This document shows positions 3,455 to 35,245 of a stretch of DNA of 64,000 nucleotides, in pieces. Origin of the DNA: Escherichia coli (lineage in GTDB: Bacteria > Pseudomonadota > Gammaproteobacteria > Enterobacterales > Enterobacteriaceae); NCBI GenBank assembly GCA_005400705.1, contig GCA_005400705.1_4079.1; one strand, written 5' to 3'. A program made the position numbers and the translations under genes. How positions within the stretch are numbered: the stretch's first letter is position 1; each line of letters begins with the position of its first letter. The notes beneath the pieces are model-generated. The model had not been told where the DNA came from and made no database searches. It was given only the letters and a program-made list of their open reading frames with translations.

Positions 3455-3697
3455 ATGAAAGTACTGACAGAATTAGAAATGTATCATAGATTTAATAAGT
3501 ACTATCATTTACTTAAACCTATACAGAGGATTAAGTGTCCCTTTGTAGTGAAACAGGTATTAATTTATGAGCATAAGTTATTTGTATCATTAGGTACGAA
3601 TGAACAAGAGTATTATTTGAAGTTGTACTTAATTACTTTAATTGAATTGATTAATTACAAAACTCAGAAAGCGAAGAAATCTAAAAATGAAAACTAA
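3455..3697 (+). CDS. family A small protein
   Basis: Start re-chosen at ATG 3455 (GGAG upstream, directly after upstream stop); motif SLGTNEQEYY. Confidence 0.6.
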   Translation: MKVLTELEMYHRFNKYYHLLKPIQRIKCPFVVKQVLIYEHKLFVSLGTNEQEYYLKLYLITLIELINYKTQKAKKSKNEN

Positions 3698-4028
3698 AAT
3701 TCAACTCAGGGTATACATATCGTATGAAAATATATACGTTAAAAGTAGTCTATGTAAAGATGTAATGGACTACAAAGGTAAACCATTCACAGTTACTTAC
3801 AGTTTAACAGGAGGTTTATATATCTCTTTTGCTAATTACGAAAATAATATGTACGAACACATTGACATTGAAGATTTAAGTACTTTATCACCAGAGGAAT
3901 ACTTCCAGGAATCATTAGTATGGGATTTAGAGTTCCCTATGCCATTAGTACATAAGATGATAGTACTAATGAAAGAATCTAAACAGGAGCCTAATAGTGC
4001 TTATGAAGAACACATTATTGAGTATTAA
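3687..4028 (+). CDS. family B protein
   Basis: Tiling ORF; core motif EEYFQESLVWD. Confidence 0.65.
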   Translation: MKTKIQLRVYISYENIYVKSSLCKDVMDYKGKPFTVTYSLTGGLYISFANYENNMYEHIDIEDLSTLSPEEYFQESLVWDLEFPMPLVHKMIVLMKESKQEPNSAYEEHIIEY

Positions 4029-4040
4029 GAGTACTGATAT

Positions 4041-4256
4041 ATGAAAAGATTATCATACAAAGATTACAGTAAACTTATCAGTACTTTACAACCAGAAATT
4101 AGAAGAATTAATTATCTTCCTATATCTAACGAAGAACGTGTAGTACTGAAAAATGAGTTAATCTTAAAACGCACAGTAGGTACTAACTATCAAGATAATA
4201 GTGTTCGCGATTTAATTAGAGGGTTAATGATCACAATAAAGGCCAAGTGCTATTGA
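4041..4256 (+). CDS. family A small protein
   Basis: Motif TVGTNYQDNS. Confidence 0.65.
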   Translation: MKRLSYKDYSKLISTLQPEIRRINYLPISNEERVVLKNELILKRTVGTNYQDNSVRDLIRGLMITIKAKCY

Positions 4257-4262
4257 CAGTAC

Positions 4263-4291
4263 TTGACGGAGCTTTTCATTACTGATATAGT
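4263..4291 (+). promoter_or_regulatory. sigma70-like promoter (TTGACG-17-TATAGT, TG-extended)
   Basis: -35 TTGACG 4263-4268, 17-nt spacer, -10 TATAGT 4286-4291 preceded by TG; about 30 nt upstream of ATG 4321. Confidence 0.5.
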
Positions 4292-4320
4292 GCATCAACG
4301 TTAATCATAGGGTACAGATT

Positions 4321-4566
4321 ATGTTAAAATTTTTAAATTTCCTTATCGTCTTGTGTATTGTTCTTGGAATTGCACCGTTTGTATTAGCGTATCTGGATTC
4401 AGATGAAATGCAGAAGATGAATTGCACAAAGACAGGACAGAGTAGAGAAGAGACGGTTATGATGCCTGTAACGGTTATTGTGAATAACATACCAATTACG
4501 AACATGATTCCTACCCTAACGACAACGTACCAGTACTCTTGTGCTGACGGAGAGAGGTGGAGATGA
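4321..4566 (+). CDS. small membrane protein
   Basis: Hydrophobic N-terminus LNFLIVLCIVLGIAPFVLAYL; follows promoter. Confidence 0.55.
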   Translation: MLKFLNFLIVLCIVLGIAPFVLAYLDSDEMQKMNCTKTGQSREETVMMPVTVIVNNIPITNMIPTLTTTYQYSCADGERWR

Positions 4567-4874
4567 AATTTAATATAGCAAAAACATCGAGTATATGTAT
4601 TTTTGGTTATTCCTATGAATTGGGTGATATTGACATTCTATTGTACAAAACGAATGGTGTTATGCATTTCAAGTACCAGGATGAAGAGGCAGACAATTAT
4701 CTTTTACCTAATTTAGTACAAATGCAGGAAGAGGAATTATTCCAGTACAGCTTAATATACGACATTGATATTTGCACGATGCCAGTATTAATTAGTATTC
4801 AAAAAGTGATGCTCGATATGTATGATAAGCTAATACAAGGTATGTCAGGGAGGATCATTGAAATCGATATATAA
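4563..4874 (+). CDS. family B protein
   Basis: ATG 4563 overlapping upstream TGA (ATGA), GGAG-rich upstream; motif EEELFQYSLIYD. Confidence 0.65.
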   Translation: MKFNIAKTSSICIFGYSYELGDIDILLYKTNGVMHFKYQDEEADNYLLPNLVQMQEEELFQYSLIYDIDICTMPVLISIQKVMLDMYDKLIQGMSGRIIEIDI

Positions 4875-5070
4875 GAATTTACCTAATGAATATTTGTTGA
4901 AGTACAAAGAGTTTATTAAAGATGTATATGTAGATCCTTTTAATATCAAATTTGCAGAGTTCGAAGTATCATTTTATCTAGGGACAATAGTACAGGACCA
5001 ATACGTTGATAATCTAATAAGGTGTTTGAAAAAGGAGATACAATGCAGACCCAAATGTACAAAAAAATAA
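4858..5070 (+). CDS. family A small protein
   Basis: Motif YLGTIVQDQY; no in-frame ATG, apparent TTG start so start uncertain. Confidence 0.45.
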   Translation: MKSIYKNLPNEYLLKYKEFIKDVYVDPFNIKFAEFEVSFYLGTIVQDQYVDNLIRCLKKEIQCRPKCTKK

Positions 5071-5306
5071 ACTGTTATTTGTATGCATCAAAGTACAGGG
5101 ATTTTTGTTTACGAGGGGGAGAGGAAGATTTTGCTCTGAGATTATCGGAATTTAATATGTTATTTTATCTTGGTACATCAGTACAAGAAGAAATGGTACA
5201 GAAATTTATCAATCACCTTGTACAAAAAATTAATATGCAAATTTTGATGCTTGAGTTACAGAATGAGATAAACAAATATGAACCCAACAATAGTACAGGA
5301 TCTTAA
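5043..5306 (+). CDS. family A small protein
   Basis: ATG 5043 with AAGGAG 5031-5036; motif YLGTSVQEEM. Confidence 0.6.
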   Translation: MQTQMYKKINCYLYASKYRDFCLRGGEEDFALRLSEFNMLFYLGTSVQEEMVQKFINHLVQKINMQILMLELQNEINKYEPNNSTGS

Positions 5307-6015: not shown

Positions 6016-6561
6016 ATGAATGAGATAGAATTATTAGCACACAAGATTAGTACAATAATGCTTATCCTAAATAACAACCATCCTATATCGCAGATAGATG
6101 GAATCCTGAGTCAGAGGACAGGTGGTAGTTTATATTTGACATTAACAGAGGTTATCGCAAGGAATTACATTGATATTGAAATCGAGAACAGTGATGCATC
6201 AGGAAAGGTTGATGTAGGTGCATTAATCAGTTCAAATCCAGTATCAGCATCCCCATTGACCAAAGGTGTTAGTACAGGATTCGAAGGGTATTTGTGGTAC
6301 AATACCAATGATGATTATTTTATATATCAGCATTCCAATACAAATTATGATGAAGACAAATTTCAGTTCATAGACCCTTATGATGAAGCTGAAGTATTTC
6401 AAAAATCATTAATCACAAAACCGCATGAGATGATGTATCTAATGTTATTCAGTACAATGCATTTGAATCCATTAATTAAAGGTTTAAAATTTTATATTCA
6501 ATTAAATTTAGTCCATGTAGTTTATGATTTATTAATGCAAGGATATAGTTATGAAGTATAA
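6016..6561 (+). CDS. family B protein
   Basis: Core motif EAEVFQKSLIT. Confidence 0.65.
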   Translation: MNEIELLAHKISTIMLILNNNHPISQIDGILSQRTGGSLYLTLTEVIARNYIDIEIENSDASGKVDVGALISSNPVSASPLTKGVSTGFEGYLWYNTNDDYFIYQHSNTNYDEDKFQFIDPYDEAEVFQKSLITKPHEMMYLMLFSTMHLNPLIKGLKFYIQLNLVHVVYDLLMQGYSYEV

Positions 6562-6862
6562 AATGATGTATACCCCAGATATGATTTATGTTGAATTAGA
6601 AGATGATGACGATGGGTGGAATTTGATTTATTCAAGAAGTTCAGGTTGGTACATGGCACATTTAAATGATTCGATAGTTACAGATTATTTTGTAGATTTC
6701 AATACATTATCCGATGAAGAATTGTTCCAACAGCAATTAGTGATTGACACGGGTGGTTATGATGTCTTATTATTAAAAAAGATACAAAAAGCTGTTATTG
6801 ATTTTAAGCCCATGATATGGCAAAGGAAATATTATGACCTCGAAGTACCATACCAGCAATGA
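6551..6862 (+). CDS. family B protein
   Basis: Core motif DEELFQQQLVID. Confidence 0.65.
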   Translation: MKYKMMYTPDMIYVELEDDDDGWNLIYSRSSGWYMAHLNDSIVTDYFVDFNTLSDEELFQQQLVIDTGGYDVLLLKKIQKAVIDFKPMIWQRKYYDLEVPYQQ

Positions 6863-7400
6863 AATTCAGTACACCTACGCTAATGCAATCCTTATGGGAC
6901 AAAAGTTAGCTTGTATTGTTGCAGCCTTATATAATGCCCAGAAATATCACAAGCGTCATTTCCACAAATGTATTGGTATTATTCCATCGAAGTACAATAC
7001 ATATATTGCGTGCACGAGTCATTTTGATAAACGATTCAATACACCTGATACCCCAAATGCCAGTAGTGTTATTGGTCTTTTGGATTTCGCACCTGGTGCT
7101 GTTATTGGAAAGAATGATTTAGAGTACACATGGTATAATAAAAATGCCCCGTTAGTAATGGGAAAATATGATACAGAAACGAATAAAACAATAGAGTACA
7201 ATACATATAAATCAGAGGAAGAATTTTTCCAAGGTTCATTGCTTGTACCAGTGCGTTTGTTGTTTTATAATGTCCTTATTAGTACAGTACACAATAGTCC
7301 ATTACACAAGAATCACAAAATTAATTTCAATTTTTGTGCTTATGCGATTGATGGTGTGTATGAGTGTTTAATGGAGGTATTGAGCTATGAAGCTGAATAA
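6834..7400 (+). CDS. family B protein
   Basis: Core motif EEEFFQGSLLV. Confidence 0.65.
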   Translation: MTSKYHTSNEIQYTYANAILMGQKLACIVAALYNAQKYHKRHFHKCIGIIPSKYNTYIACTSHFDKRFNTPDTPNASSVIGLLDFAPGAVIGKNDLEYTWYNKNAPLVMGKYDTETNKTIEYNTYKSEEEFFQGSLLVPVRLLFYNVLISTVHNSPLHKNHKINFNFCAYAIDGVYECLMEVLSYEAE

Positions 7401-7728
7401 TACATTTGATATTAATAAGTTAAGAGAATGGTTTTATAGTATTGAAATTGAAGCCATCCCGTATCATAGATATGAACAATATAATTTAACCAGTATTGAT
7501 ATCCGTGAGTTGTACGCGTATTATCAAAGTGCATTAGAGATGCATAAGTTATTTTTGAGTACAGATTTTGTTATAAATTACAATTTTGAGGAATTTAATA
7601 ATTATAATTTAGTACAGAAATATGTAGTAGCAAAGTACATGTACCTTCAAGGAATTACAAGTAATTTGGAATTCAATACAGTCCTGGCTTTAGTTGAGGT
7701 AATTTTATGCAGTACATGTATGATTTAG
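7387..7728 (+). CDS. hypothetical protein (degenerate family B-like)
   Basis: Tiling ORF; weak core EEFNNYNLVQ. Confidence 0.5.
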   Translation: MKLNNTFDINKLREWFYSIEIEAIPYHRYEQYNLTSIDIRELYAYYQSALEMHKLFLSTDFVINYNFEEFNNYNLVQKYVVAKYMYLQGITSNLEFNTVLALVEVILCSTCMI

Positions 7729-8213
7729 AGTTTAGTTTAGATGCTGCCTTTAAATTTGTTCACAAGATAGAAACAATATACAGTACATTATGTGCAATAC
7801 AATCAGTATCATCTGAGTTTGATGTTGGTGAAAAATATCAGGTATGGAATAATACATTTCTAAACAAAGAACGTTGCTCTACGGGGTTTAATATTTTAAC
7901 ATTTAACCCCAGCAATTGTTACCCAGAGAAGCATGAACGTTATCCGAATGACGACATGTGGTTTGATTACACAAAAGATGGTGATATGTCATCCCTTGTA
8001 GTTCCTGATGATTTTAATGCCGAAGATTTAACGAAAGAGTGGTGGTTTCAACAGAATTTAGTACACGATGATATTGATTTATTTTTTTATGTAGTATTTA
8101 AAATGCTTTACCACAACAATATATTAAAAGATAGTGTGTTTTTTTCATGTCTATATATTGATGATTTGTACAATGAAATCCAAATCAACATGCCCAGAAC
8201 GCCTGTATCGTAA
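7707..8213 (+). CDS. family B protein
   Basis: Core motif KEWWFQQNLVHD. Confidence 0.65.
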   Translation: MQYMYDLEFSLDAAFKFVHKIETIYSTLCAIQSVSSEFDVGEKYQVWNNTFLNKERCSTGFNILTFNPSNCYPEKHERYPNDDMWFDYTKDGDMSSLVVPDDFNAEDLTKEWWFQQNLVHDDIDLFFYVVFKMLYHNNILKDSVFFSCLYIDDLYNEIQINMPRTPVS

Positions 8214-8238
8214 GATATGGGCTTTTTTCGTTTTGGTA

Positions 8239-8267
8239 TTGACAAAGAAGTGCAAAGCTGTTATCAT
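8239..8267 (+). promoter_or_regulatory. sigma70-like promoter (TTGACA-17-TATCAT)
   Basis: -35 TTGACA 8239-8244, 17-nt spacer, -10 TATCAT 8262-8267; upstream of RBS AAGGAG 8282-8287. Confidence 0.5.
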
Positions 8268-8295
8268 GTGTAATCATTTTAAAGGAGAACATATA

Positions 8296-8817
8296 GTGAG
8301 TTTCATAATCCCAAGTACATACGAAGATGCATCAAGTGCAGTGTATAAGGTTCATTATATTTTTAATTTAATTATTAGTGCATCAAAAAATAAAATGTAT
8401 GCACCTCTTGTGAAATATGATAAAAATGAGGAAATTTTTGTTAGCACAGAACAAACGATTTTTCCATATTTCAAAGAAGATAGATTGTGGTTCATGCATT
8501 CAGTCGCATTACAAAGATATAATATAACAAGGTCCAATGAGCATGATTATTTGGATATACAATTAGATCAACCCGATATTGGAGAGGATGAATATTTTCA
8601 GTACAGCACAGTACACCACCATGAAGATATCTTTGCTGCTATGCTTATTGCTAAATTGAACACCGTTGATTTGGAGCAGCACAAATACAATAATAAATCA
8701 TGTAAGATCATAATCCCTGCATTCATTGCTCTTTATGATTACATTGTGCATAACAAAAAAGATGATACATATGCTTTCAATGAAGAGTATTTGAATTTTT
8801 TTAAGGAGAACATATGA
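8296..8817 (+). CDS. family B protein
   Basis: Start placed at in-frame GTG 8296, 8 nt after AAGGAG; core motif EDEYFQYSTVHH. Confidence 0.55.
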   Translation: MSFIIPSTYEDASSAVYKVHYIFNLIISASKNKMYAPLVKYDKNEEIFVSTEQTIFPYFKEDRLWFMHSVALQRYNITRSNEHDYLDIQLDQPDIGEDEYFQYSTVHHHEDIFAAMLIAKLNTVDLEQHKYNNKSCKIIIPAFIALYDYIVHNKKDDTYAFNEEYLNFFKENI

Positions 8818-9341
8818 GCAGTGAAGTGCTGAAATCAATGACATTCAATGAAATTGGTGCATTTAAAGATAAGATCATTGATTGCATTGAATACATGATT
8901 TGTAGTAATATCGAAAGTATTGAGATATTTAACAAGACAAATCGCTCTTACCATATGATGTACATTGCAAACAATAATGGTATCATTCCATTTATTTCGG
9001 ATAGTACAATATGGTACGCATGTGATACGAAAAAAACCACAATAGGTTTACATTCATTTGAGACACATTATGATCTAATTATTCCTGAACATTGTATGCA
9101 AGAAGAAGAATATTTTCAAATGCAATGTATACATTCACCATTAGTGTTGTTTAGTTTATATATTATACCTTATATCACCAAATGTGTTCATGAGAATAAA
9201 GCTCCGTGGAATCATGAATTTGTATCGTTGAAGTTATTGTATAATGTATTAGTAGAATATTATGATTACAGGCACAATGGTACAATCAGTGATGTATGGG
9301 ATTTTGAATCGCTAAGGGTGAAAACATACACAGGTGAATGA
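8814..9341 (+). CDS. family B protein
   Basis: Core motif EEEYFQMQCIH; ATGA overlap. Confidence 0.65.
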   Translation: MSSEVLKSMTFNEIGAFKDKIIDCIEYMICSNIESIEIFNKTNRSYHMMYIANNNGIIPFISDSTIWYACDTKKTTIGLHSFETHYDLIIPEHCMQEEEYFQMQCIHSPLVLFSLYIIPYITKCVHENKAPWNHEFVSLKLLYNVLVEYYDYRHNGTISDVWDFESLRVKTYTGE

Positions 9342-9342
9342 T

Positions 9343-9957
9343 ATGACCAGAATTAAAATGTATGATTTGATGCAGTACAGTAAAATTGCCATTCCAGTGC
9401 TTAATAAAGTGCTGGATGCATTCATTGCCAAATACCCTGAGAATTCAGTGTTATGTATTCCATTTAGTGTTCCAGATAAAGATGATATATTCCAAGTGAA
9501 TGTCAGTACACGTGGTATTACATTGCAGCAGAAATACATGGATACGGAATATTATGGAATAAAGTTGGATTCAGTACAGGGTTCAAAATCAGCCTATGAT
9601 TTTTTTGTTCCTAATAATATAGAGTCATGGGAAACAAACATTTCAAAGAAAGATGAAAATGATGTTCCTATTAGTGGTGTGTTCAACAATAAAGTTTTTT
9701 ATTATTACGAAACCGACAAATTCCCTGAAGAGTTATATTACAATTCAGAAATGAATGAAGATGTAGATGCATTCATGTTTCAATTATCGTTAGTACATGA
9801 TATCATTGATGTTCAAGAGTTAAGAGCAGAAATCAATTTAGCTAAAGAGTTATCGGACATGCTGCCACCGTTTAGTATGCTTTTTTGTGAAGGAGGTTAT
9901 TTTTCAAAAGAAGTGTTTGAACATTTCGTAGATGTTGTAAAAGGGTTGGATATATAG
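9343..9957 (+). CDS. family B protein
   Basis: ATG 9343 just after upstream stop; core motif DAFMFQLSLVHD. Confidence 0.6.
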   Translation: MTRIKMYDLMQYSKIAIPVLNKVLDAFIAKYPENSVLCIPFSVPDKDDIFQVNVSTRGITLQQKYMDTEYYGIKLDSVQGSKSAYDFFVPNNIESWETNISKKDENDVPISGVFNNKVFYYYETDKFPEELYYNSEMNEDVDAFMFQLSLVHDIIDVQELRAEINLAKELSDMLPPFSMLFCEGGYFSKEVFEHFVDVVKGLDI

Positions 9958-10161: not shown

Positions 10162-10680
10162 ATGCATCAACACAAGCATCATTCATATGATTTTGCAATT
10201 AACATTATGAAGTTCATTCGAGCGTTGGAGGATGGGAAGCTTAGTCATAAGTACACCAAAGTGGGTGACAATTGGTTCAGAAATGATGATGATGAGTTCA
10301 GAAGTCATAAGATTGTTTACAGCAATAATTACAGTGCCAATTACCTACAAGATGTAGTGATGTGTTTTGAATACGTGTTACAGTTCAGGGGTTCCATCAG
10401 TCCTGAGCTAAGAGAACACATGTACATTCGATACCTACCAATGCTTAAGGATGAGAAATCAATATTCAATTCAGTACACCACAGAGTACGAGAGAGAACA
10501 TTCAGAGATATTTTGGAAGATGAAGCTGCCTATTTTCAGCAATCATTGATTGATGCTCCTGATGTGTTACAGATGCAGAATTTGTATAATGTATTAGATG
10601 CGAACATCGATACGGATATCTTTTTTTCCTTAAGTGATTATGAAACATTTTTGGAAGATTTAAAGGAAATAGGATTATGA
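10162..10680 (+). CDS. family B protein
   Basis: RBS GAGG upstream; core motif EAAYFQQSLID. Confidence 0.65.
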   Translation: MHQHKHHSYDFAINIMKFIRALEDGKLSHKYTKVGDNWFRNDDDEFRSHKIVYSNNYSANYLQDVVMCFEYVLQFRGSISPELREHMYIRYLPMLKDEKSIFNSVHHRVRERTFRDILEDEAAYFQQSLIDAPDVLQMQNLYNVLDANIDTDIFFSLSDYETFLEDLKEIGL

Positions 10681-11021
10681 GTAGATTTTCAGTTTATATA
10701 GTAAACGTCAGTAAAGATGGTAGTTTAATTGAATTTGATGTAGTTGATAACAATGATAATTCATATGGTATTAAGGTACAGGACAATGATGTACAGTTCA
10801 GTACAAGGACAAATTTTGAGAATCCAGTCCAAGTTCCGAATTTCATAGAAGATGAAGCTGCACGATTCCAATACGAAACGGCCTTTGATAATTTAGCGAT
10901 GCATATTATTATGCAAGAAAGTTTAGTTCAATTGCTTCAGGTATTCAGACAAAATATATATGTACATGAAGTGTCGATTAATGGCATTCAAAGTTCCGTT
11001 TTGTTCGGTACAAATATGTAA
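10677..11021 (+). CDS. family B protein
   Basis: ATGA overlap; core motif EAARFQYETAFD. Confidence 0.6.
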   Translation: MSRFSVYIVNVSKDGSLIEFDVVDNNDNSYGIKVQDNDVQFSTRTNFENPVQVPNFIEDEAARFQYETAFDNLAMHIIMQESLVQLLQVFRQNIYVHEVSINGIQSSVLFGTNM

Positions 11022-11031
11022 GGAAAGTACA

Positions 11032-11586
11032 ATGAGTTCAATGAGTTTATTAGATACATTAGAAAAAGACAGAAGTGCCATTAAGAGATTAAAAAATCTT
11101 GTCCAGAGCATTGCGAACAACGCTGAGAAGTTCAGTGACAATCTTAGTATAGGTGATATAACCAGTACAGGAATAAAATCCCTGAAGTCAGATTTATTAA
11201 TTCATAAGGAAGATAAATTATTATTTGTATTGAGTTCAGATTTAATGGTTGCAAGTAATGGTTTCAATTCGATATCAACACAAGATGGTAGCACAGGATT
11301 ATATCTATCACAGGGTGTCCAGACGAACGAACAGAAGTGTTTTAGTTCAGGAGTACAGAATCCCTTTAAGTTCAGTACAGAACAAGCTACAGAGCTTTTA
11401 GAGGCTTCAGAAGAGATGTTATTTCAGTACAAAACGGTTCATACAGATTTTGAATTACGATGCATGTACGCTGTTAAGCATTATGTTCAGGAGTTCGAGG
11501 ATTTAAGTTATCTTTTAGTTCGAACGAATACAAAGAACATTGGTGCATTAGAAGATTACATTTCAAAAGTTGTTAAAGGTTGTTAA
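11032..11586 (+). CDS. family B protein
   Basis: ATG 11032 with AAGGA upstream; core motif EEMLFQYKTVH. Confidence 0.6.
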   Translation: MSSMSLLDTLEKDRSAIKRLKNLVQSIANNAEKFSDNLSIGDITSTGIKSLKSDLLIHKEDKLLFVLSSDLMVASNGFNSISTQDGSTGLYLSQGVQTNEQKCFSSGVQNPFKFSTEQATELLEASEEMLFQYKTVHTDFELRCMYAVKHYVQEFEDLSYLLVRTNTKNIGALEDYISKVVKGC

Positions 11587-12164: not shown

Positions 12165-12364
12165 AGACGTTTCATTTTGACAGGCCGCAGGGGGGTCAAA
12201 AAAATTTCCGCTGAAAAACATGCTAAGGTATATGTTTAATATAAAGTTTTATATTGTGTTTTTCAGAGTACAGTTTATGTTTCCTGAAACAAAAAAAAAA
12301 TACCCCGCCACCGAACGTGCTCCTTATATTGGAGTTTACCTTATTAATTATAGTAGAGATTAAG

Positions 12365-13454: not shown

Positions 13455-13463
13455 GATTATAAA

Positions 13464-13958: not shown

Positions 13959-13959
13959 A

Positions 13960-24405: not shown

Positions 24406-24432
24406 TGATTTTAAATAGAGTTGGAGGAATCT

Positions 24433-27644: not shown

Positions 27645-27658
27645 ATTCGTACCAGGGG

Positions 27659-27688
27659 TTGACTCTGGTATTTTTGTATGATACATTG
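27659..27688 (+). promoter_or_regulatory. possible promoter (TTGACT-18-TACATT)
   Basis: -35 TTGACT 27659-27664 and -10-like TACATT 27683-27688 in the 60-nt gap before RBS AAGGAG. Confidence 0.3.
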
Positions 27689-27705
27689 TCCTAAAGGAGA
27701 ATTTT

Positions 27706-28257
27706 ATGAACTACAATCATGATCTTTTTACATTATGTGCATCCAAATGTGTTGATGGATGGACAGATAAAATCAATACCATAATTCATCGATATCTGGT
27801 CTTTAGTTCTCGTGCACGAAGTGAGGGGGCTATGGATTTCAAATATACACTATCTATTGATGGTGTAACTATCCATGCAGACGAAGAACGTCTGAGCATT
27901 AATTTGTATGATTCCTGTGTATTTGCTATTCACCAAAAGATGGGGAAAGGATGGGGTTGTAATAACATTAACTCAAAAGCTATCTTTTGGGTTGGTCACC
28001 ACCAGACAGTACTTGATCCTTCAATCAAATCTAATCTTTTATCCGATAATATGGTTTATGATTTATTGTACTCCGAAGAACAACATTTTCAGTTAAGTAC
28101 ATTACATGATCTGGCACAGTACGAGGATTGTTACAAAACATTAGAACTATGCCATTCCCTTGAACTTAAAGATAAATTGATACAAGTTTACCCTTCATTC
28201 TTTCATGAAGAAGTACAAAGTACACTAGATCATATTTTATATGGATACGATAAATGA
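27706..28257 (+). CDS. family B protein
   Basis: RBS AAGGAG; core EEQHFQLSTLHD. Confidence 0.65.
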   Translation: MNYNHDLFTLCASKCVDGWTDKINTIIHRYLVFSSRARSEGAMDFKYTLSIDGVTIHADEERLSINLYDSCVFAIHQKMGKGWGCNNINSKAIFWVGHHQTVLDPSIKSNLLSDNMVYDLLYSEEQHFQLSTLHDLAQYEDCYKTLELCHSLELKDKLIQVYPSFFHEEVQSTLDHILYGYDK

Positions 28258-28856
28258 GAAAAAGTTATCAAGAAGCTATTGACTTAATTCGTGAAGTTAT
28301 CAAGGTGGCTCCTGCTGCTATTGAGTTCAAGAAGTCCATATACAAGAAGTATGGTTCAATGTCGAGTATGTGCTTTCAAAAGAAACGTAGAGCATTCACT
28401 ACCCAGTACTGGAATGATTCTATCATCCTGAGCAATGAGACTCAGCGTATTTTAACACTAGAATCTGAACCTAATGAGTACGGGGAAGGGAACATTTGTG
28501 TACCTGATTATGATGAAATTAACTTCAACTGCGGTGATTTTGAAACAACATTATTACTTCATGAGGGTTATCCAGAAGGTGATGTATTAGCTGAGTACAA
28601 TCCAAAAACTAAAATTCTCAAAAGAGGAATCCAGTTCACTATTAATAACAAAGATGATGTTCAAGCAGCACTGATGCAACTGAGTACAAGTGAACCTATC
28701 ACTATTAGTGTAGAAGAGTTATGGGGAATTATTTCAGTACTCAATGAGTGCTATAAAGTAAAATCATTGCGTAAACACAGCATTATATTACATACCAATA
28801 TGGCAAATATAAAATGTAAGCACATTCAAGAAATGGTGGTTCCAGATGGACTTTAA
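28254..28856 (+). CDS. family B protein (MQ variant)
   Basis: Core QAALMQLSTSE; ATGA overlap. Confidence 0.6.
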   Translation: MRKSYQEAIDLIREVIKVAPAAIEFKKSIYKKYGSMSSMCFQKKRRAFTTQYWNDSIILSNETQRILTLESEPNEYGEGNICVPDYDEINFNCGDFETTLLLHEGYPEGDVLAEYNPKTKILKRGIQFTINNKDDVQAALMQLSTSEPITISVEELWGIISVLNECYKVKSLRKHSIILHTNMANIKCKHIQEMVVPDGL

Positions 28857-29430
28857 AGAAATTGAAAGTAAATTAAAGTACTTCAAAGATATCAAACTTC
28901 TTTGGGAAAAGTATAAAGTTGATTACAATTTCAGTGATGATGACACTGTAAAAACAATTGAGATTAATATCAAAATCAAGTTCAAGAATAATAATTATGG
29001 TGAAGTAACCTTAAATCATACTGGTATATCACTCAAGGACTATGATGGTTCAACACTCGCATATTTTGACTTCACACCAGAACCAGGTGAAACACTACTT
29101 AGTGAGATAAATTCCTATGACATGGAAGTGTTCGGCGGGAATCCGTTACTGTTCCGACTTTCTGAAGATTGGAGTGAAGAATACTACACTTACAAAGATG
29201 GTGTAGTACTTGACATTAATGGTGAAGTTGTGAATGACTTGGAAGAACGCTTGTTCCAAGAATTGTGTGTTTCAAATACTTCATATGCATACAATCATAT
29301 CCTTGACATGTTTGATTTATATAGTAAAATAGATGCTGAAATGAATGCACATGGTATTCATTATCTTACAATCAACGACTATGCTCAACTTGAAACTGTA
29401 GTGAAAGCATTGACTAAAGTACTGAAATAG
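28846..29430 (+). CDS. family B protein
   Basis: Core EERLFQELCVS. Confidence 0.6.
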   Translation: MDFKEIESKLKYFKDIKLLWEKYKVDYNFSDDDTVKTIEINIKIKFKNNNYGEVTLNHTGISLKDYDGSTLAYFDFTPEPGETLLSEINSYDMEVFGGNPLLFRLSEDWSEEYYTYKDGVVLDINGEVVNDLEERLFQELCVSNTSYAYNHILDMFDLYSKIDAEMNAHGIHYLTINDYAQLETVVKALTKVLK

Positions 29431-29439
29431 GAATGAAAT

Positions 29440-29853
29440 ATGAAACTGTATCATGCGAGTACTGTAAAAATTGATAACTTTTATATCCCGTATGGTGGTC
29501 TTCATATGGGAGGTAAACACAGTGCTTTGGAAGCTGCATTACGCAAGCTCAGAAGTCCACTGAACGTAGTAGACGCATGTACAGTATACTTGCATACCTT
29601 AGAAGTTGATGTTGATAACGTGCTTCTGTGTGAAGATTTAGGCAGTGATGATGAGTGGCGTTCACTTATTGAGAATTGCACTGCTCAAGGTTATGATGCT
29701 GTTCAGTACAAAAATGATTACGAGCCAGACAATGTTCCTAGTTTTATGATTTGGGATGCATCTAAAGTTCGCATCATTGAAGTTGATGCTATGCATATGG
29801 ATGAAGCTGAAATGATTATCGAAGATTTTCTTGATGAATATGAAGGTGTATAA
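29440..29853 (+). CDS. hypothetical protein (non-family insert)
   Basis: 137-aa tiling ORF lacking the FQ core; acidic C-terminus. Confidence 0.55.
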   Translation: MKLYHASTVKIDNFYIPYGGLHMGGKHSALEAALRKLRSPLNVVDACTVYLHTLEVDVDNVLLCEDLGSDDEWRSLIENCTAQGYDAVQYKNDYEPDNVPSFMIWDASKVRIIEVDAMHMDEAEMIIEDFLDEYEGV

Positions 29854-30371
29854 TGATTGAACCTATGACAGTACTAGCACGTACTAAATTATTATTGAGG
29901 ATTGGTGAGATATTCACTGATATTTTGTACAGTGGGATTGATATACTTGAATTAGGCATTAAGCAACCGTGGGAATTAACCAAGTTCTCTGCGTTCCATC
30001 GTTTATCCTATAAAGGGGAAACGGTTCTTGACTTGAACCCCAAAGCCAGATTCATGGACTATGCAGCTTTATATGGAACATGTGGAGGAATAACAAATGA
30101 TTTCAAAGAAATTAAAGTTCAAACAGCGTCACATGAATTTAATGATTTATTATATCCAGAATTTAAGTTAACAGAAGAATCATTCTTCCAGTACTCATTG
30201 ATTTTAAAAGATCTTAATGATTTAGAGTACTACAAAGAGTTAGTAGATATTTTTATTAATACACGACTTTCAAAAGATATTGTGATATTCTGGTATACAG
30301 AGCATGTTACGGAGGAATTGCTTACTGAATTTCTTCTAAATATGACAGCTATAAAGGAGAAGTTATGTTAG
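29853..30371 (+). CDS. family B protein
   Basis: Core EESFFQYSLIL. Confidence 0.65.
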   Translation: MIEPMTVLARTKLLLRIGEIFTDILYSGIDILELGIKQPWELTKFSAFHRLSYKGETVLDLNPKARFMDYAALYGTCGGITNDFKEIKVQTASHEFNDLLYPEFKLTEESFFQYSLILKDLNDLEYYKELVDIFINTRLSKDIVIFWYTEHVTEELLTEFLLNMTAIKEKLC

Positions 30372-30838
30372 ATATTTTAGGAAACATCGACACTGCAAAT
30401 TATTTTATTCAAGATGCATTGTTTAATACAGTACAACAAGGTTTAGAAGTTCACCACAATGTTTATCAGGGTGATGGATATTTTGTTGATATTATCGAGA
30501 CACGTAAAAATACATTTAATGTTAACATTACGACGCTTGGAAGACAGAACATTGCACGAATTTTAGTAAGTAAAGATGAAATAGTACTGAGATACAGTGC
30601 TAAGTTTATGTTGACTTATAAGAAAAAAACTGATATGTTCAGTACTAATTTATTTGATGAGCCATTTGACCTTGAAGATATTGAAGCTACTTTCTTTACT
30701 CAAAGTACTATGGTAAAATACACTGATGTTCAATTTTCTGCTGATGTAATGTCAGAAACATTACAAATGATCAAGGTATTATTTTATGCATTTGAGCAAT
30801 TTAGAGAAGAAAGAAACAAGGTTAACAACCACAGATGA
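30365..30838 (+). CDS. family B protein
   Basis: Core EATFFTQSTMV. Confidence 0.6.
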   Translation: MLDILGNIDTANYFIQDALFNTVQQGLEVHHNVYQGDGYFVDIIETRKNTFNVNITTLGRQNIARILVSKDEIVLRYSAKFMLTYKKKTDMFSTNLFDEPFDLEDIEATFFTQSTMVKYTDVQFSADVMSETLQMIKVLFYAFEQFREERNKVNNHR

Positions 30839-31199
30839 ACTAATAGAGGCGATCACTAAGGAGTCAAAATACCATAAAGGTATTCGTCTATACTTTATAG
30901 ATACTGGTTCGATGGAAGGTACATACATTTATGGTTCACAATCGTTGTCTTATGATGCAATGCCAAATAAACATGTTAAAATCTTTTTAGGTTCAAGTAA
31001 TAAAACTTTCTTGACAATTAATGATAGCAGTGTTATTATGAATTCGTTGGGTCATGATAAGGTGGAAATTGATCTAAACACGCTGGAGGATATTGATTTT
31101 TTTCAATACGAGTGTTTAGGTGTTGACTTACATGGCATTAGTAGCGATATGATAAAATCATTAATCAAATATTTCGAAGGTGTTCATAAATGTATCTAA
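30786..31199 (+). CDS. family B protein
   Basis: Core DIDFFQYECLG; 53-nt overlap with upstream gene so start uncertain. Confidence 0.5.
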   Translation: MHLSNLEKKETRLTTTDELIEAITKESKYHKGIRLYFIDTGSMEGTYIYGSQSLSYDAMPNKHVKIFLGSSNKTFLTINDSSVIMNSLGHDKVEIDLNTLEDIDFFQYECLGVDLHGISSDMIKSLIKYFEGVHKCI

Positions 31200-31687
31200 C
31201 TAAATCAATGAAAAATTCATTTGATAAAATCAAGAGTTGTCTTGATGGAGAAAATATTACAAGTGTTACACAAACTGCTGACCAAATTCAAAGCAGTTCA
31301 AGTGATTGCACTGTTATTTTTGGTTTACATAGTCTGCGTTTATCAATAGTAAATAATATTGACAACACTGCTATTGTAATCACACCATGCAATATTCAAA
31401 ATGAGAATGGTGTATATCTTCATCACATGGGAACAGTATTTCACATTTTCAATTCAAACGAAAACATTGTTAAGGAATACAATACTCTTAATATTGATTC
31501 AGGTGAATTATTTCAAATGAGTACTTTGTACTCATGTAATTTTACAGATACTTCATGTATTTTGCCATTTTTCTTGGAAATTATTAAGAAAATGGAAAAT
31601 TTAAAACGTGAATACAATAAAGAAATGGTTCCTGAAGCTATATTAAATATTACTAATGCTATAGAGAAGTATAATGCAGTGACTTAA
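31190..31687 (+). CDS. family B protein
   Basis: Core SGELFQMSTLYS. Confidence 0.65.
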   Translation: MYLTKSMKNSFDKIKSCLDGENITSVTQTADQIQSSSSDCTVIFGLHSLRLSIVNNIDNTAIVITPCNIQNENGVYLHHMGTVFHIFNSNENIVKEYNTLNIDSGELFQMSTLYSCNFTDTSCILPFFLEIIKKMENLKREYNKEMVPEAILNITNAIEKYNAVT

Positions 31688-31729
31688 TAAAAACGCACAT
31701 GGAGTGCATTAGAAGATCAAGGATAGATC

Positions 31730-32203
31730 ATGGAGATTAAAACTGTTGAAAATGGGAAAATTGATGACATTTTAGAGTTGGACGCATTCAAAGTTCATGA
31801 TATAATGTTTAATGTGAAGGACATTATTCAATGTCTATTTTTGTGTAGCAAGACAATGCATGATTTTTTTCACAACCCAAATACTAACGTTTTTATACTA
31901 ACAATCAGTACTGAAAACTCGTTTATCATGGGTATGCCTATGAGTACAAATGAACAATATATTGATTGTGTTATTCGTAATAACGATAGTATTACGCCAC
32001 AATCTGAAGTACGTAAAAAGAAAAACACCTACACAATCAAAGATGATAAAATTATGATGTGCTGTAGTAAAGGGTTTATATTAGATAATTTTATCGTAAA
32101 AGACAGTTATCACGACTTTAAAGTATCTGAAAATCAATCCAATGTAGTTCTTTATGCGAGTGACATAGAAAGTCTAACAGTTAAAGATCCCAGTTTGGAG
32201 TAA
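31730..32203 (+). CDS. hypothetical protein
   Basis: 157-aa tiling ORF; no family motif. Confidence 0.55.
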   Translation: MEIKTVENGKIDDILELDAFKVHDIMFNVKDIIQCLFLCSKTMHDFFHNPNTNVFILTISTENSFIMGMPMSTNEQYIDCVIRNNDSITPQSEVRKKKNTYTIKDDKIMMCCSKGFILDNFIVKDSYHDFKVSENQSNVVLYASDIESLTVKDPSLE

Positions 32204-32205
32204 GT

Positions 32206-32337
32206 ATGGCTAAGAAAGTAAACAATTTCGTACAGAAACACATGAATGAGTTTAACAAGCCTCAGACACATGTGGATCGTAAAAAAGAAATGAAAAATGG
32301 TAAAGTAAAACACAAGTCGAGATTTATTCTCGACTAA
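32206..32337 (+). CDS. small basic protein (43 aa, absent from ORF track)
   Basis: ATG 32206 seven nt after GGAG; lysine-rich MAKKVNNFVQKHMNEFNKPQTHVDRKKEMKNGKVKHKSRFILD; followed by terminator. Confidence 0.45.
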   Translation: MAKKVNNFVQKHMNEFNKPQTHVDRKKEMKNGKVKHKSRFILD

Positions 32338-32343
32338 TTTTTT
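32316..32343 (+). terminator. rho-independent terminator
   Basis: Hairpin GTCGAG-atttatt-CTCGAC followed by T-run. Confidence 0.6.
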
Positions 32344-32366
32344 GTATAAATTTATGAGGATTGTAT

Positions 32367-33215
32367 ATGTTAGACATTTCAGATTTTCTTAATTTTAAAA
32401 AGTATTCAGTACTTGAACATATCAACGAATTTCTGAATTCTACTACACCATTTGGTATCAGTACATCAGATGTATACGATGGATATACAATCTTCCCATA
32501 CAATGACTTTCAAATTTCCGTCAAAAAAGGTTTTACAAAAGAAGTTGCAATTCGTGATGTAGTAATGTATAGCGATTCTTCTATTTCTTACTGTCATGAT
32601 GTGAACAAGTTTGAATCTCTTGCAACACCTAATTGTTCATACTACAAATCCCATGACACGATGATGTATAAAGAACAACATATCAATGGTGTTTCGTTCT
32701 ATAAAACTAGCAGTGATAAATCATATACATCTAGAGATGATTTTGGAAAATACACATGTACTATGCACACGGATAATGAAAAAACAAATTACACTCATTC
32801 ATTCGAGTCCAAATTCCAAGAGAGTGAAGTTTCAAATATCACTATACAAGAACAGGTTTCAGAAGGCATTGTATATCGTAGCACTGCATTCTTTCGCATG
32901 AAAGATATTGTCACAGGCAGACCAATGATGTACAATATTGACATATACATGAAAGGTGATATATCCGAAGTAGTGATTAGTACTGGTTATCGTGAAAAAT
33001 ATACAGTTACAATGGAATCACCAGATGCATCATTAGTTCACCTCTTTAACAATTTATATACATTCCAATTCGAACTTAGTTTCGATCCAAATGAATATCA
33101 AATATTTGATATATTAAAAAGTAATATTATTAATAAGTTAGAATATTACTACAAGTTAGGTGGTAAGATGTGCATAGTTAATACTATGTTACATAACATA
33201 AAAGAAACATTATAA
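32367..33215 (+). CDS. hypothetical protein (possible family B-like)
   Basis: ATG 32367 six nt after GAGGA; 283 aa; contains SKFQESEVS. Confidence 0.55.
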   Translation: MLDISDFLNFKKYSVLEHINEFLNSTTPFGISTSDVYDGYTIFPYNDFQISVKKGFTKEVAIRDVVMYSDSSISYCHDVNKFESLATPNCSYYKSHDTMMYKEQHINGVSFYKTSSDKSYTSRDDFGKYTCTMHTDNEKTNYTHSFESKFQESEVSNITIQEQVSEGIVYRSTAFFRMKDIVTGRPMMYNIDIYMKGDISEVVISTGYREKYTVTMESPDASLVHLFNNLYTFQFELSFDPNEYQIFDILKSNIINKLEYYYKLGGKMCIVNTMLHNIKETL

Positions 33216-33231
33216 ATCTGGAGGATTTGGT

Positions 33232-33525
33232 ATGGATACTAAATTCAAAATTATTTTTAAAACTAAGCCGTATATTCCACATACAGCAGAACGTTTTATA
33301 CCACATGGTGCTGAGGAAATTATTCACCAAGATGGTACTAAGTTATACCTTGTTCCTTGTTCTTATGAACGTGCAGTAGAAATGTTGCTAATGAATGCTA
33401 GACTATGCAAAAACAAGTACATTAGTTACCTATACAATGAACATATTTTAGATTTCAATGATGAAAATATGTTCATTCTAGCAATTGAGGATTTTGATAA
33501 CTGGTACAATATTATTAAAATCTAA
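33232..33525 (+). CDS. hypothetical protein
   Basis: 97-aa ORF with GGAGG RBS. Confidence 0.55.
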   Translation: MDTKFKIIFKTKPYIPHTAERFIPHGAEEIIHQDGTKLYLVPCSYERAVEMLLMNARLCKNKYISYLYNEHILDFNDENMFILAIEDFDNWYNIIKI

Positions 33526-33534
33526 TGAAAATAA

Positions 33535-33580
33535 TGTGAACATATTAGATTCTTGTGATATAATGTTCACATCTTTTTTT
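33535..33580 (+). promoter_or_regulatory. extended -10 promoter box inside a hairpin plus T-run element
   Basis: TGATATAAT 33556-33564 lies between 9-bp inverted repeat arms TGTGAACAT 33535-33543 and ATGTTCACA 33563-33571, followed by T-run 33572-33580. Confidence 0.5.
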
Positions 33581-33596
33581 GATAACGGAGATATAG

Positions 33597-33983
33597 ATGA
33601 ATACAAGTTCAGTCCTAAAAGCAATTGGTGGTGTTTTACTCATTGAAGTAAAAGGTGAGCCAAAGCTATGCTGTTTAGAAGATATGAAGAATACAAAACA
33701 CTTCAGTACTGGTCAGATTTTCAATGCCATTCGTATTCTAAATGACAAATCCATTGCTGATTATGGAAAAGTTTGGCCTGTATATCAAAATGCTGATGGT
33801 GATATCAGTACTGATTGGAAAACAATTGAGGCGGTACGACAAAGTTGTGAGAGTGATTGGGACTTCATTGTTGAAGTTTGTGATCAACTACAAGAAGATG
33901 TTCCAGAAATTGTTGAACGAAAAGAAGTTCTAGCACGACTTGAAAAATTCCGTCACGGAACACTACAGTATGACACAATCTAA
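33597..33983 (+). CDS. hypothetical protein
   Basis: 128-aa ORF after GGAG RBS. Confidence 0.55.
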   Translation: MNTSSVLKAIGGVLLIEVKGEPKLCCLEDMKNTKHFSTGQIFNAIRILNDKSIADYGKVWPVYQNADGDISTDWKTIEAVRQSCESDWDFIVEVCDQLQEDVPEIVERKEVLARLEKFRHGTLQYDTI

Positions 33984-34032
33984 TCTGCTTATTAAAAATA
34001 TCTAATTAACATTATATAAAAGGAATTTAAAA

Positions 34033-34338
34033 ATGGAAGACAATGGAATGAAATTTGATATGTTTGAAGGTGTACCAGAGTTCGATTTCAACAAACTTGA
34101 AGAAGGTGAGGAATCAGAACTAGTTAGTGTTACACTTAAAGCAGATTCTAAAAAGAAATATTCATCATCAGTACGTTCACGTTCACAAGAAGAATACGAA
34201 TCATTTATTGAAAGTATTCATTATGAAACATTCCATCACGCAGATGGAACTCCATATGAAGTACGTGTAACAGTACTGAAGCCTGAAGTAAATCCAATGG
34301 AAAATCTACGTCCTGTTTACTGCTGGGCAAGTCACTAA
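34033..34338 (+). CDS. hypothetical protein
   Basis: 101-aa ORF with AAGGAA RBS; followed by terminator. Confidence 0.55.
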   Translation: MEDNGMKFDMFEGVPEFDFNKLEEGEESELVSVTLKADSKKKYSSSVRSRSQEEYESFIESIHYETFHHADGTPYEVRVTVLKPEVNPMENLRPVYCWASH

Positions 34339-34347
34339 TAAACCAAA

Positions 34348-34378
34348 GGACGGGATTTGTTATCTCGTCCTTTTTTTT
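34348..34378 (+). terminator. rho-independent terminator
   Basis: Hairpin GGACGGGAT-ttgtt-ATCTCGTCC (one G-U pair) followed by T8. Confidence 0.75.
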
Positions 34379-34390
34379 GTCTGGAGATGT

Positions 34391-35245
34391 ATGAAACTTT
34401 ATCTAATCGTTGACTACAATAAGGATTATGCTGGTAACTTCACCGAAGATTCGGATGGATATTGCACATCGACTAATGTCAATGTACGTAGCAGTAGTGC
34501 TCATGAACATGAATCTTGTAAAAATCTAAAAGATTTTATCGCATACCGAGCATTTGAAAAGAACTTCTGCCGCAGTAGATATTCGAAGTTTGAGTACCCG
34601 TTAATTGATGTTCCTGATGATTTAATGTTCCAGTTAATGCTGACTGGAGTTCAAGATTATGATTACATAGCGTATAATCATATTACTAAGAAAATTTATA
34701 TTGGTACATCATCACATGACACTTCTATGTATGCATCATGCCCAGATGATCGAATGAATGATAGAAAATCATACTATAGTGGGTCAGTTGGTTTAAATGA
34801 TTCATTAAATAAAAATTCATTCTTTGAGTATGTTTATGATTACCATCATGAGAAAAAAGAACGTGAAGATTACTGTATAGCAATTGATAGTACTAATGGT
34901 TATGAAGACGTGAAAGAAGCACTTATGCCGTACATTATTGAAAAGTACTACAAAGATTTTCAGTACTGTAGTAATTTTCTAATCAGAAATTCTATTATAA
35001 TCGGTCGCCAATCTAGTGCATACTCTCAGTACTATAATGATTCACCAGTAGCATCGGCAAATGAAATGTGTGATATTTTACAAATTCCACGTGAAGATAT
35101 GGCATTCATTTTTACATCTTTTATTGAAGATGATGAGTTGTATATTAAAAATAAACACCGTTTCATGCCAAGCAAGATTGAGGTTATTCGAAGTTTTAGT
35201 GTTGATATACTAACAAATTTCACAGAAAAAACCGAATATAACTGA
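34391..35245 (+). CDS. family B protein (long member)
   Basis: 284 aa; core DDLMFQLMLTG. Confidence 0.6.
   Translation: MKLYLIVDYNKDYAGNFTEDSDGYCTSTNVNVRSSSAHEHESCKNLKDFIAYRAFEKNFCRSRYSKFEYPLIDVPDDLMFQLMLTGVQDYDYIAYNHITKKIYIGTSSHDTSMYASCPDDRMNDRKSYYSGSVGLNDSLNKNSFFEYVYDYHHEKKEREDYCIAIDSTNGYEDVKEALMPYIIEKYYKDFQYCSNFLIRNSIIIGRQSSAYSQYYNDSPVASANEMCDILQIPREDMAFIFTSFIEDDELYIKNKHRFMPSKIEVIRSFSVDILTNFTEKTEYN

Follow-up and report, generated by a model that had tools for sequence, protein, structure and literature searches.

The FQ gene array and its members

The subject of this analysis is an array of paralogous genes, here termed the FQ family after the Phe-Gln pair at the center of their shared motif, in a 64,000-nucleotide stretch of DNA (contig GCA_005400705.1_4079.1, deposited under Escherichia coli; the whole stretch is referred to as "the window"). 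The window comes from a jumbo coliphage, an Asteriusvirus (121Q/PBECO4-like) with a genome of ~350 kb. The window has a G+C content of ~32% and almost all of its genes are on the + strand; bases 13000-22000 share 96.7% identity with Escherichia phage 121Q and also match a further ~30 phages of 310-386 kb, which are Asteriusvirus jumbo coliphages and Salmonella phages. Open reading frames (ORFs) of the array share one strand and follow each other closely, stop codons overlapping with start codons, and all genes of the region are annotated as hypothetical proteins in 121Q and phAPEC6.

Membership was established with an iterative profile hidden Markov model (HMM), seeded and run on the window's own ORFs, which converged on 44 of them. 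One of these (37003-37536) had been drawn in by the HMM but is a cytidyltransferase according to PHROGs; it was removed as a false positive, leaving 43 members, all on the + strand, with 41 located in 3687-31687 and two further downstream (42771-43349 and 43346-44035). Direct scanning of the window identified 35 ORFs with FQx[STC] after acidic residues. A stricter pattern, [ED]x(1-3)FQx[STC][LTVCI], was present in 33 of the 73 ORFs of ≥60 amino acids (aa) between 3.6 and 32 kb, compared with a mean of 0.28 ORFs and a maximum of 3 when residues were shuffled within proteins (1000 shuffles). About nine additional array ORFs carry a degenerate motif and fall below the HMM threshold (E = 1e-3), so that the "about 50" paralogs counted in a preliminary description of this DNA are a fair estimate. 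The range given there (3.7-35.2 kb, plus 42771-44035) holds as far as 31687 and for the two outlying genes, whereas 32361-33215, 33232-33525, 33597-33983 and 34033-34338 are unsupported as family. Likewise, the proposed size range of 100-285 aa narrows to 102-229 aa; ORFs of 284 aa are not members by HMM. Together, members account for ~21 kb of coding sequence, or ~6% of the 350-kb phage genome.

Phe and Gln were the sole invariant columns in a MAFFT alignment of the 43 members and were conserved in 100% of 191 family sequences, even though members are only 13-20% identical to one another (mostly 10-20% to the reference member). The family motif can be written as [ST]-E-E-x-[YLF]-F-Q-x-S-[TL]-[VIL]-[YHFW]-[DN], and its logo over the 191 sequences (numbers are percentages) as [LM]-[ST]-E(73)-E(75)-x-[Y37 L23 F10]-F(100)-Q(100)-x-S(86)-[T46 L45]-[V40 I30 L20]-[Y37 H15 F W]-[D37 N14]. 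Alignment therefore bore out the positional conservation of the core and the invariance of its FQ pair, but not the invariance that had been claimed for its surroundings: Ser is found in 86% of sequences, the two Glu in 73-75%, and the residue preceding Phe may be Y, L, F, H or M. The position after Gln is variable (Y26 L19 Q12 E10 N7 G6 %), with Ser one residue later. Distance from the motif to the C-terminus is fairly constant (41-74 residues, median 50), while the part on its N-terminal side ranges between 63 and 138 residues. Homology is not limited to the core, as had been thought, since the profile alignment of the 145-195 aa class spans nearly the whole protein; a short class of 100-120 aa is without the N-terminal helix. 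Members are acidic (median isoelectric point 4.85 versus 6.05 in other ORFs; median net charge -9), have no conserved catalytic-type residues in the 191-sequence logo, and contain just two transmembrane-like segments, both in doubtful N-terminal extensions.

Individual members, given here with their motif sequences, were assigned by HMM membership together with inspection of motif and codons. The array begins with 3687-4028 (short class, 113 aa; SPEEYFQESLVW) and 4557-4874 (short class; QEEELFQYSLIY), followed by 6016-6561 (DEAEVFQKSLIT) and 6551-6862 (SDEELFQQQLVI), a short-class gene in which Gln replaces Ser and which joined in HMM iteration 2. Next are 6834-7400 (SEEEFFQGSLLV; phrog_19795), 7707-8213 (TKEWWFQQNLVH), 8134-8817 (GEDEYFQYSTVH; PHROG match from residue 45), 8814-9341 (QEEEYFQMQCIH), 9334-9957 (VDAFMFQLSLVH), 10162-10680 (DEAAYFQQSLID), 10960-11586 (SEEMLFQYKTVH) and 12254-12742 (DDAALFQEALVF). 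True starts of the 8134 (GTG) and 12254 (TTG) ORFs are probably internal, because their hydrophobic N-terminal extensions have no counterpart in orthologs or PHROG profiles. Two short-class genes, 12739-13098 (DAGELFQAALVF) and 13095-13454 (DDGELFQEALVF), are recent paralogs of each other, and a recent tandem cluster (13464-15788) comprises 13464-13958 (SEEYYFQQSTVY; phrog_9317), 13960-14430 (SEDYYFQQSTIY), 14427-14867 (TEEYYFQQSLIF), 14870-15358 (SEEYYFQNSTIY) and 15336-15788 (SEEYYFQNSTVY). The middle of the array holds 15785-16099 (short class; HESFIFQESLVW), 16404-16853 (TEEGYFQGSTVY; phrog_12674), 16850-17386 (FDEQCFQLSCTD), 17741-18301 (TEENIFQNSVLH), 18900-19262 (short class; QEDELFQESLVW), 19186-19629 (GEEEMFQYSTVF), 19608-19949 (short class; DEGELFQESLVF), 19909-20493 (NQEYYFQLSLLF), 20553-21035 (SEEEFFQYSTLY), 21032-21514 (TEEMYFQGSCIH; phrog_12674), 21507-21869 (short class; SEEELFQESTVN), 21853-22266 (TPDELFQYSLVL) and 22254-22748 (SEESYFQNTLIY). 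The distal part consists of 23271-23834 (LESAMFQLSLIH; collinear ortholog L003:22286-22894 in Klebsiella phage Muenster), 23779-24345 (TDEVLFQLSTIC), 24996-25580 (RDAFIFQKSLLD), 25567-26145 (VEEELFQMSTVI) and 27063-27644 (GEENYFQLSTIH), both collinear with a Muenster gene, 27706-28257 (SEEQHFQLSTLH), 29853-30371 (TEESFFQYSLIL; collinear, and directly after an ADP-ribosyltransferase [ART]-like gene as in Muenster), 30786-31199 (EDIDFFQYECLG), a weak member that joined in iteration 3, and 31190-31687 (DSGELFQMSTLY; collinear ortholog L003:30421-30918). Outside the main array lie 42771-43349 (GLPEHFQISTLY; phrog_37163) and 43346-44035 (SEEEHFQLMMMR), the latter a weak member from iteration 3 and ortholog of P0080.

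Candidate degenerate members, also on the + strand, are 10677-11021 (ARFQYET; EDEAARFQYETAF), with an HMM E value of 0.004 in the 24-ORF set, below threshold; 28846-29430 (RLFQELC; LEERLFQELCVS; domain E = 0.002); 26570-27079 (IEEIEFQNNTLS; E = 0.05); and 28254-28856 (ALMQLST, with Met replacing Phe; QAALMQLSTSEP), which was picked out by inspection alone and was not significant by HMM. The same is true of the motif-only candidates 18292-18894, 24421-24999, 26145-26573, 30365-30838 and 34391-35245. The last of these has its FQ-like element (DDLMFQLMLTG, containing LMFQLML) near residue 80 and is one of two ORFs of exactly 284 aa (with 32361-33215) that flank a terminator-rich stretch. Neither matched Pfam or is a member by HMM; a Muenster gene syntenic to the 284-aa ORF(s) is annotated as "putative secreted protein".

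Distribution and evolution of the family

When 1.84 billion cluster representatives were searched exhaustively with the HMM, 126 proteins were returned at E ≤ 1e-3, all of them motif-bearing and 55-229 aa long, and many just 25-45% identical to any member in the window; a profile-based homologue search found nothing beyond close relatives in Asteriusvirus. In isolated phages, the family is present in Asteriusvirus and Alcyoneusvirus (RaK2, K64-1, Muenster), with at least 29 members in a 30-kb syntenic array in Muenster. GAP32 (Mimasvirus) has ~9 members, again in synteny, upstream of its Dam and cytidyltransferase genes; one GAP32 member has homologs in CBB, in Eneladusvirus phages of Erwinia and Serratia and in one Xanthomonas jumbo phage. 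The PA5oct-like phage Cassandra was examined over 48 kb upstream of the cytidyltransferase, and this non-syntenic region yielded no convincing member, which does not establish absence from the genome. Judged from these sequence matches, the family is limited to RaK2-like jumbo phages: it was conserved, with varying copy number, in all those of Enterobacterales that were examined, and extends to the Xanthomonas phage.

The preliminary description had not recognized the family, and searches for a characterized domain agreed. At E ≤ 10, no Pfam family was matched by more than one of the 43 members, NCBIfam and PADLOC gave isolated spurious matches only, and a profile search of PDB sequences had no matches at E ≤ 10. 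Foldseek against PDB gave no significant fold match (best E = 1.6), and BFVD returned only uncharacterized relatives from the same phage group. In PHROGs, the same proteins (E values of window members 1e-53 to 1e-136) are split over at least eight unlinked groups (phrog_9317, 12674, 13866, 30978, 22855, 34636, 37163 and 19795), all of "unknown function" and with weak cross-matches between them; a unified FQ superfamily and its size are unrecorded there. Searchable literature held no paper describing the family, although paralogy as such had been seen: nearly 10% of RaK2 proteins are paralogs (PMC3622015), and 22 paralogous ORFs are mentioned for CBB (PMC5259590). The family is thus a new one, on an apparently new fold, and a single definition by profile and motif now unites proteins that PHROGs had scattered.

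Selection on the array genes was evaluated from codon usage at the motif and from comparison with phAPEC6 orthologs. Motif codons vary synonymously across members (TTT:TTC 24:19, CAA:CAG 19:24) and Ser is encoded by both AGY and TCN, indicating that constraint acts on the protein and not on the DNA. The ratio of nonsynonymous to synonymous substitution rates (dN/dS) was 0.34 for N-terminal parts, 0.28 for C-terminal parts and 0.29 for neighboring non-family genes; dN between orthologs was 0.041 for C-terminal parts and 0.061 for N-terminal parts. Free synonymous variation and a dN/dS of ~0.3 identify the members as constrained protein genes, with purifying selection at an ordinary level and nothing to suggest decay.

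Orthologs in phAPEC6 are 58-100% identical in a mosaic pattern, and some copies are confined to some Asteriusviruses (phAPEC6 gp465c [P0103] is without a counterpart in the window). Local duplications at 13464-15788 and 12254-13454 are recent. In contrast, the distal array is collinear between genera: 23271, 25567, 27063, 29853 and 31190 match Muenster genes with their order kept, and cross-genus orthologs are ~30% identical with the motif intact. Broad phyletic range, collinear distal copies and recent local duplications together show that the family is old and evolves by birth and death.

Predicted fold, genomic setting and likely role

For 13464-13958, an AlphaFold model based on the family alignment had a mean predicted local distance difference test score (pLDDT) of 83 and a predicted template modeling score of 0.77. 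In order, it comprises an N-terminal helix (3-21), five strands, a short helix (104-108) and helix 114-121 (EEYYFQQS), which is N-capped by Ser113 and contains the FQ pair as residues 118-119; beyond a turn (TVYD) come a long hydrophobic helix (126-140), another strand and the final helix. Block means of pLDDT in region 111-140 were 96-97. The model of the short member 18900-19262 was weaker overall (pLDDT 64) and has the same arrangement: a small sheet, helix 64-77 with F68-Q69 (block mean 95), and helix 82-98. While the preliminary description had asked whether the core maps to a loop or strand, both models place FQ in a helix, not in a loop or linker. Each member would be a single compact alpha/beta domain with an optional N-terminal helix, a sheet of four to five strands and a C-terminal helix pair. 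The [ST]-E-E sequence is a typical helix N-cap, and conserved positions -1, 0, +4 and +5 form a hydrophobic stripe; because these positions show helical periodicity, FQ likely belongs to the folded core, where the two C-terminal helices form a corner.

In related genomes with mapped termini, the array adjoins the left ~20-kb direct terminal repeat (DTR) on its inner side and is co-oriented with it. The DTR of Muenster spans 1-20030 (PhageTerm) and its first family member starts from 20938. In CBB, whose DTR is 22,456 bp (PMC5259590), the gene starting at 22,520 is CBB_53, which is orthologous to the candidate member GAP32_048; more clear-cut members begin directly after it with CBB_54. The Asteriusvirus fEgEco12 has a repeat of 20,993 bp with termini confirmed by restriction mapping (PMC13070987) and family members at ~28 and ~39 kb on the + strand. 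By analogy with the window, where a family of small ORFs (134-3697) presumably fills the space between terminal repeat and FQ array, the ~7 kb between the fEgEco12 repeat and its members would be filled by the same small-ORF family. Downstream of the array are Dam, cytidyltransferase, RNA ligase 1, polynucleotide kinase-phosphatase, DNA ligase, two metallophosphoesterases, ClpP and dCMP deaminase; the array thus neighbors T4-type early and middle functions. In the related jumbo phage PA5oct, which relies on host RNA polymerase for infection, genes of the DTR region form an early class with high expression (PMC7318152).

The window's best sigma-70 matches fall in the array's few intergenic gaps, at 4263, 12177, 20490 and 24377. 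Those at 4263-4291 and 12177-12205 are promoter-like sites, as is that at 20490-20519 (+ strand), in a 60-bp gap before the next member, which matches the consensus at 12 of 12 positions (TTGACA-18-TG-TATAAT, with extended -10). The fourth (24377-24405, likewise with an extended -10) follows a terminator-like hairpin (24344-24363), the two together taking up 24344-24405 (+ strand) within a gap of the array. Terminator-like hairpins are enriched in 20001-40000 (16 versus 5.6 ± 1.8 in shuffles; strong ones at 24344, 27649, 34345 and 38713), while the first 20 kb holds 3; the distal array therefore seems to be split into several transcription units.

Presence in virions was assessed from published proteomes of related phages, not from the source isolate. 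The array corresponds to gp404c-gp466c of phAPEC6, and none of the 62 proteins in the phAPEC6 virion proteome falls between gp347 and gp549 (PMC7247149, Table 1). The orthologs CBB_53-58 are listed as "conserved hypothetical" with no mass spectrometry (MS), Pfam or HHpred entry (PMC5259590, supplement). No array member is thus present in either published proteome.

Dense one-strand sets of small genes beside a long DTR are also seen in the pre-early genes of T5, the host-takeover module of SPO1 and the early DTR genes of PA5oct. Those of T5 and SPO1 are terminal-repeat host-takeover gene sets, and common to all three and the FQ array are host-type promoters or promoter-like sites, absence from virions and small genes with unassigned function. 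Those modules consist mostly of unrelated small proteins, whereas here one fold has been amplified to ~45 copies with an invariant dipeptide; no sequence similarity was found to proteins of T5, SPO1 or PA5oct (for PA5oct, in the examined part of a PA5oct-like genome). Large eukaryotic DNA viruses offer a second comparison. MGF360/505 of African swine fever virus, the ankyrin/PRANC and BTB-Kelch families of poxviruses and the US22 family of herpesviruses are tandem expansions of one domain in terminal regions, which evolve by birth and death and serve host range or immune evasion. The FQ family resembles them in being an array of one-domain paralogs by the terminal repeat (in Muenster, CBB and fEgEco12), with copy number ranging between genera from ~9 in GAP32 through at least 29 in Muenster to 43 (~45) here, and with both ancient collinear and recent clustered paralogs; it differs in host domain and fold, and shares no homology with them. 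By analogy, members might be expressed early and serve host takeover, immune evasion or host range; indirect evidence for this comes from the sigma-70-like sites in gaps of the array, the early DTR genes of PA5oct and the non-virion status of the products.

The explanation that we favor, with moderate confidence, is that the FQ genes are a lineage-specific multigene family encoding soluble, acidic, non-virion and probably early accessory proteins for host takeover or anti-defense, in which FQ is a structural keystone. The motif [ST]-E-E-x-[YLF]-F-Q-x-S-[TL]-[VIL] would form a short helix with an N-cap and the turn that leads into the long hydrophobic one, which would make Phe and Gln the keystone of the fold's core and the sole residues to stay fixed while the surface diverges to near-random identity. 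Host RNA polymerase would transcribe the array early, from the region beside the left terminal repeat, and the products may serve as a set of cytoplasmic binding proteins, with a separate target for each paralog among host takeover or anti-defense functions; birth, death and replacement of copies would then track host diversity. If members are indeed early host-directed binders, the array would amount to a library of ~45 natural variants per phage on one scaffold, with dozens more in related phages and metagenomes, which might be mined for inhibitors of host functions or defense systems, could help explain the host range of phages proposed for therapy, and would extend the multigene-family strategy of large eukaryotic DNA viruses to bacteriophages. 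In any case, ~6% of a phage genome is devoted to one family that has neither a database name nor a resembling solved structure.

Several points weigh against this explanation. Pairwise dN/dS revealed no positive selection between orthologs (a crude measure, as averages would hide selection). The argument for early timing draws on position, promoter-like sites and analogy with PA5oct, T5 and SPO1, yet the window total of promoter-like sites was not above shuffled expectation. Virion MS can miss low-copy proteins. Burial of Phe and Gln was argued from helical periodicity and not from model coordinates, and high pLDDT at FQ partly reflects conservation in the alignment. Lastly, few purely structural residues would be expected to be kept as strictly as this Gln (100% over ~190 sequences of 13-20% identity), and such absolute invariance would also fit a shared binding function.

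The last point leads to the main alternative, which we regard as unlikely but worth serious attention, namely that members are adaptors whose C-terminal FQ helix pair docks on one hub of host or phage (an unfoldase/protease such as the phage ClpP, or RNA polymerase), while the divergent N-terminal sheet of each paralog recognizes a different target. Its logic is that of the ankyrin/PRANC (F-box-like) or BTB-Kelch families of poxviruses. Absolute invariance of Phe and Gln, with a highly conserved acidic pair and Ser in otherwise divergent proteins, would be expected of a docking surface, and C-terminal parts of orthologs do change slightly less (dN as above); in addition, the short class retains just this module together with a small sheet, the family looks non-enzymatic, and the phage encodes its own ClpP at 57610-58305 (Pfam E = 4e-41), ~14 kb beyond the last member. 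However, the conserved hydrophobic positions of the motif follow a core-facing helical pattern, and adjacency to ClpP is loose, the gene lying within an unrelated nucleotide-metabolism and repair block. A more specific version, in which the FQ hairpin docks members on, for example, the unfoldase partner of ClpP and the variable sheets capture host proteins for destruction or sequestration, seems improbable; if true, such a repertoire would be the bacterial-virus counterpart of poxvirus PRANC/F-box and BTB-Kelch proteins, with host defense or housekeeping proteins as targets.

The preliminary description had likened the core to the recognition context of the potyviral NIa protease of tobacco etch virus (TEV), E-x-x-Y-x-Q-(G/S), and, besides a docking signal, proposed one for cleavage or capsid targeting on proteins that are processed by a phage protease and packaged or ejected. 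The likeness lies in an invariant Gln, an aromatic residue before it and acidic residues four to five positions upstream: with Gln as P1, Glu is found at P6 in 73% of sequences and Tyr is the commonest residue at P3 (37%), and a few members (EEGYFQGS, EEMYFQGS) match the site literally. Yet Tyr at P3 reaches no more than that 37%, and the TEV site needs Gly or Ser directly after Gln, where the 191 sequences are variable (Gly 6%) and have their conserved Ser at P2'. It also needs an exposed flexible linker, whereas in both models FQ sits in a high-confidence helix internal to the fold. Capsid-targeting sequences of T4 are N-terminal and prohead proteases of the T4 type cut after Glu, not Gln; the FQ motif is internal, ~60-155 residues from the N-terminus and 40-75 from the C-terminus. 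As to proteases, Pfam searches of the larger ORFs at 32-63 kb identified ClpP and a weak ClpP-like match only, with no 3C/chymotrypsin-like (NIa-like) enzyme. Of the two proteases that had been named as candidates, the ClpP-like product is thus real, but no HslV-like product was found among the ORFs scanned, and ClpP is processive, not site-specific. Capsids of the 121Q type do hold internal radiation-sensitive proteins (PMC7247149), although array proteins are absent from the phAPEC6 and CBB virion proteomes. With FQ in a confident helix and no array member in virion proteomes, the cleavage and ejected-protein proposal is unsupported, and we rejected it as very improbable on motif statistics, models and proteomes; resemblance to the TEV site is coincidental.

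Still less credible is the possibility that Q-x-S-L-[VI] is a sliding-clamp-binding motif and the family a set of clamp competitors. The bacterial consensus is QL[SD]LF, which members with FQLSLV, FQLSLI or FQLSLL resemble, and such motifs sit in disordered termini or loops. In the FQ family, just 19% of sequences have Leu after Gln, the final residue is Val, Ile or Leu (40, 30 and 20%) and not Phe, the invariant partner of Gln is the preceding Phe and not the Leu positions, and the motif is internal and helical in the models; this candidate was therefore rejected on residue frequencies and helical context. Finally, a DNA-level signal within the ORFs (a promoter, recombination or packaging repeat), or ORFs that are not real genes, is formally conceivable in a tandem and dense array, but we give it next to no credence and rejected it on the synonymous variation at the F, Q, E and S codons, including the AGY/TCN switch of Ser, to which the dN/dS of ~0.3, the tight one-strand packing with overlapping stops and starts and the retention of cross-genus orthologs with their motif at ~30% identity can be added.

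Neighboring genes and minor observations

Upstream of the array, 134-3697 contains a second tandem paralog family of 16 + strand ORFs of 71-91 aa, with 90 significant blastp matches among its own ORFs (query-subject rows) and an [LF]LGT[ND]xQE motif conserved near the C-terminus (for example, FLGTNYQE and LLGTDRQEY). An apparent stray copy (5022-5306; FYLGTSVQEE) is located inside the FQ array, and in 121Q the run of small ORFs reaches further upstream as genes of ~70 aa.

Within the array, the 137-aa ORF at 29440-29853 had no Pfam or PDB sequence match; it is 59% identical to CPT_Muenster_123, labeled "putative ADP-ribosyl transferase" by its depositors (HHpred 4GV2_A). This ART-like ORF lies inside the array in both genera and is far better conserved between them than the surrounding FQ members. 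Downstream, a T4-type RNA repair set (RNA ligase 1 and polynucleotide kinase-phosphatase) and an ATP-dependent DNA ligase are encoded at 44297-47468 and 54514-55932; between repair set and ligase, ORF 47455-48195 has a weak NUMOD3 match and is possibly homing-endonuclease-like. The weak ClpP-like match mentioned above is a second ORF at 61571-62194 (Pfam E = 0.004).

In a ~358-kb contig resembling phage UE-S1, two short-class FQ domains are naturally fused in a single ORF of 242 aa (P0014) with motifs LMDEAALFQESLVF and IMNEAELFQASLVF; the counterpart in the window is the pair of neighboring genes at 12739-13454. Family proteins are filed under bacterial names in public databases, many as "Escherichia coli". 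A 563-nt contig of Actinomadura adrarensis (P0035) with 80% identity to a window gene is likely contamination, and ~350-kb contigs of E. coli "genomes" are whole Asteriusvirus genomes within bacterial assemblies.

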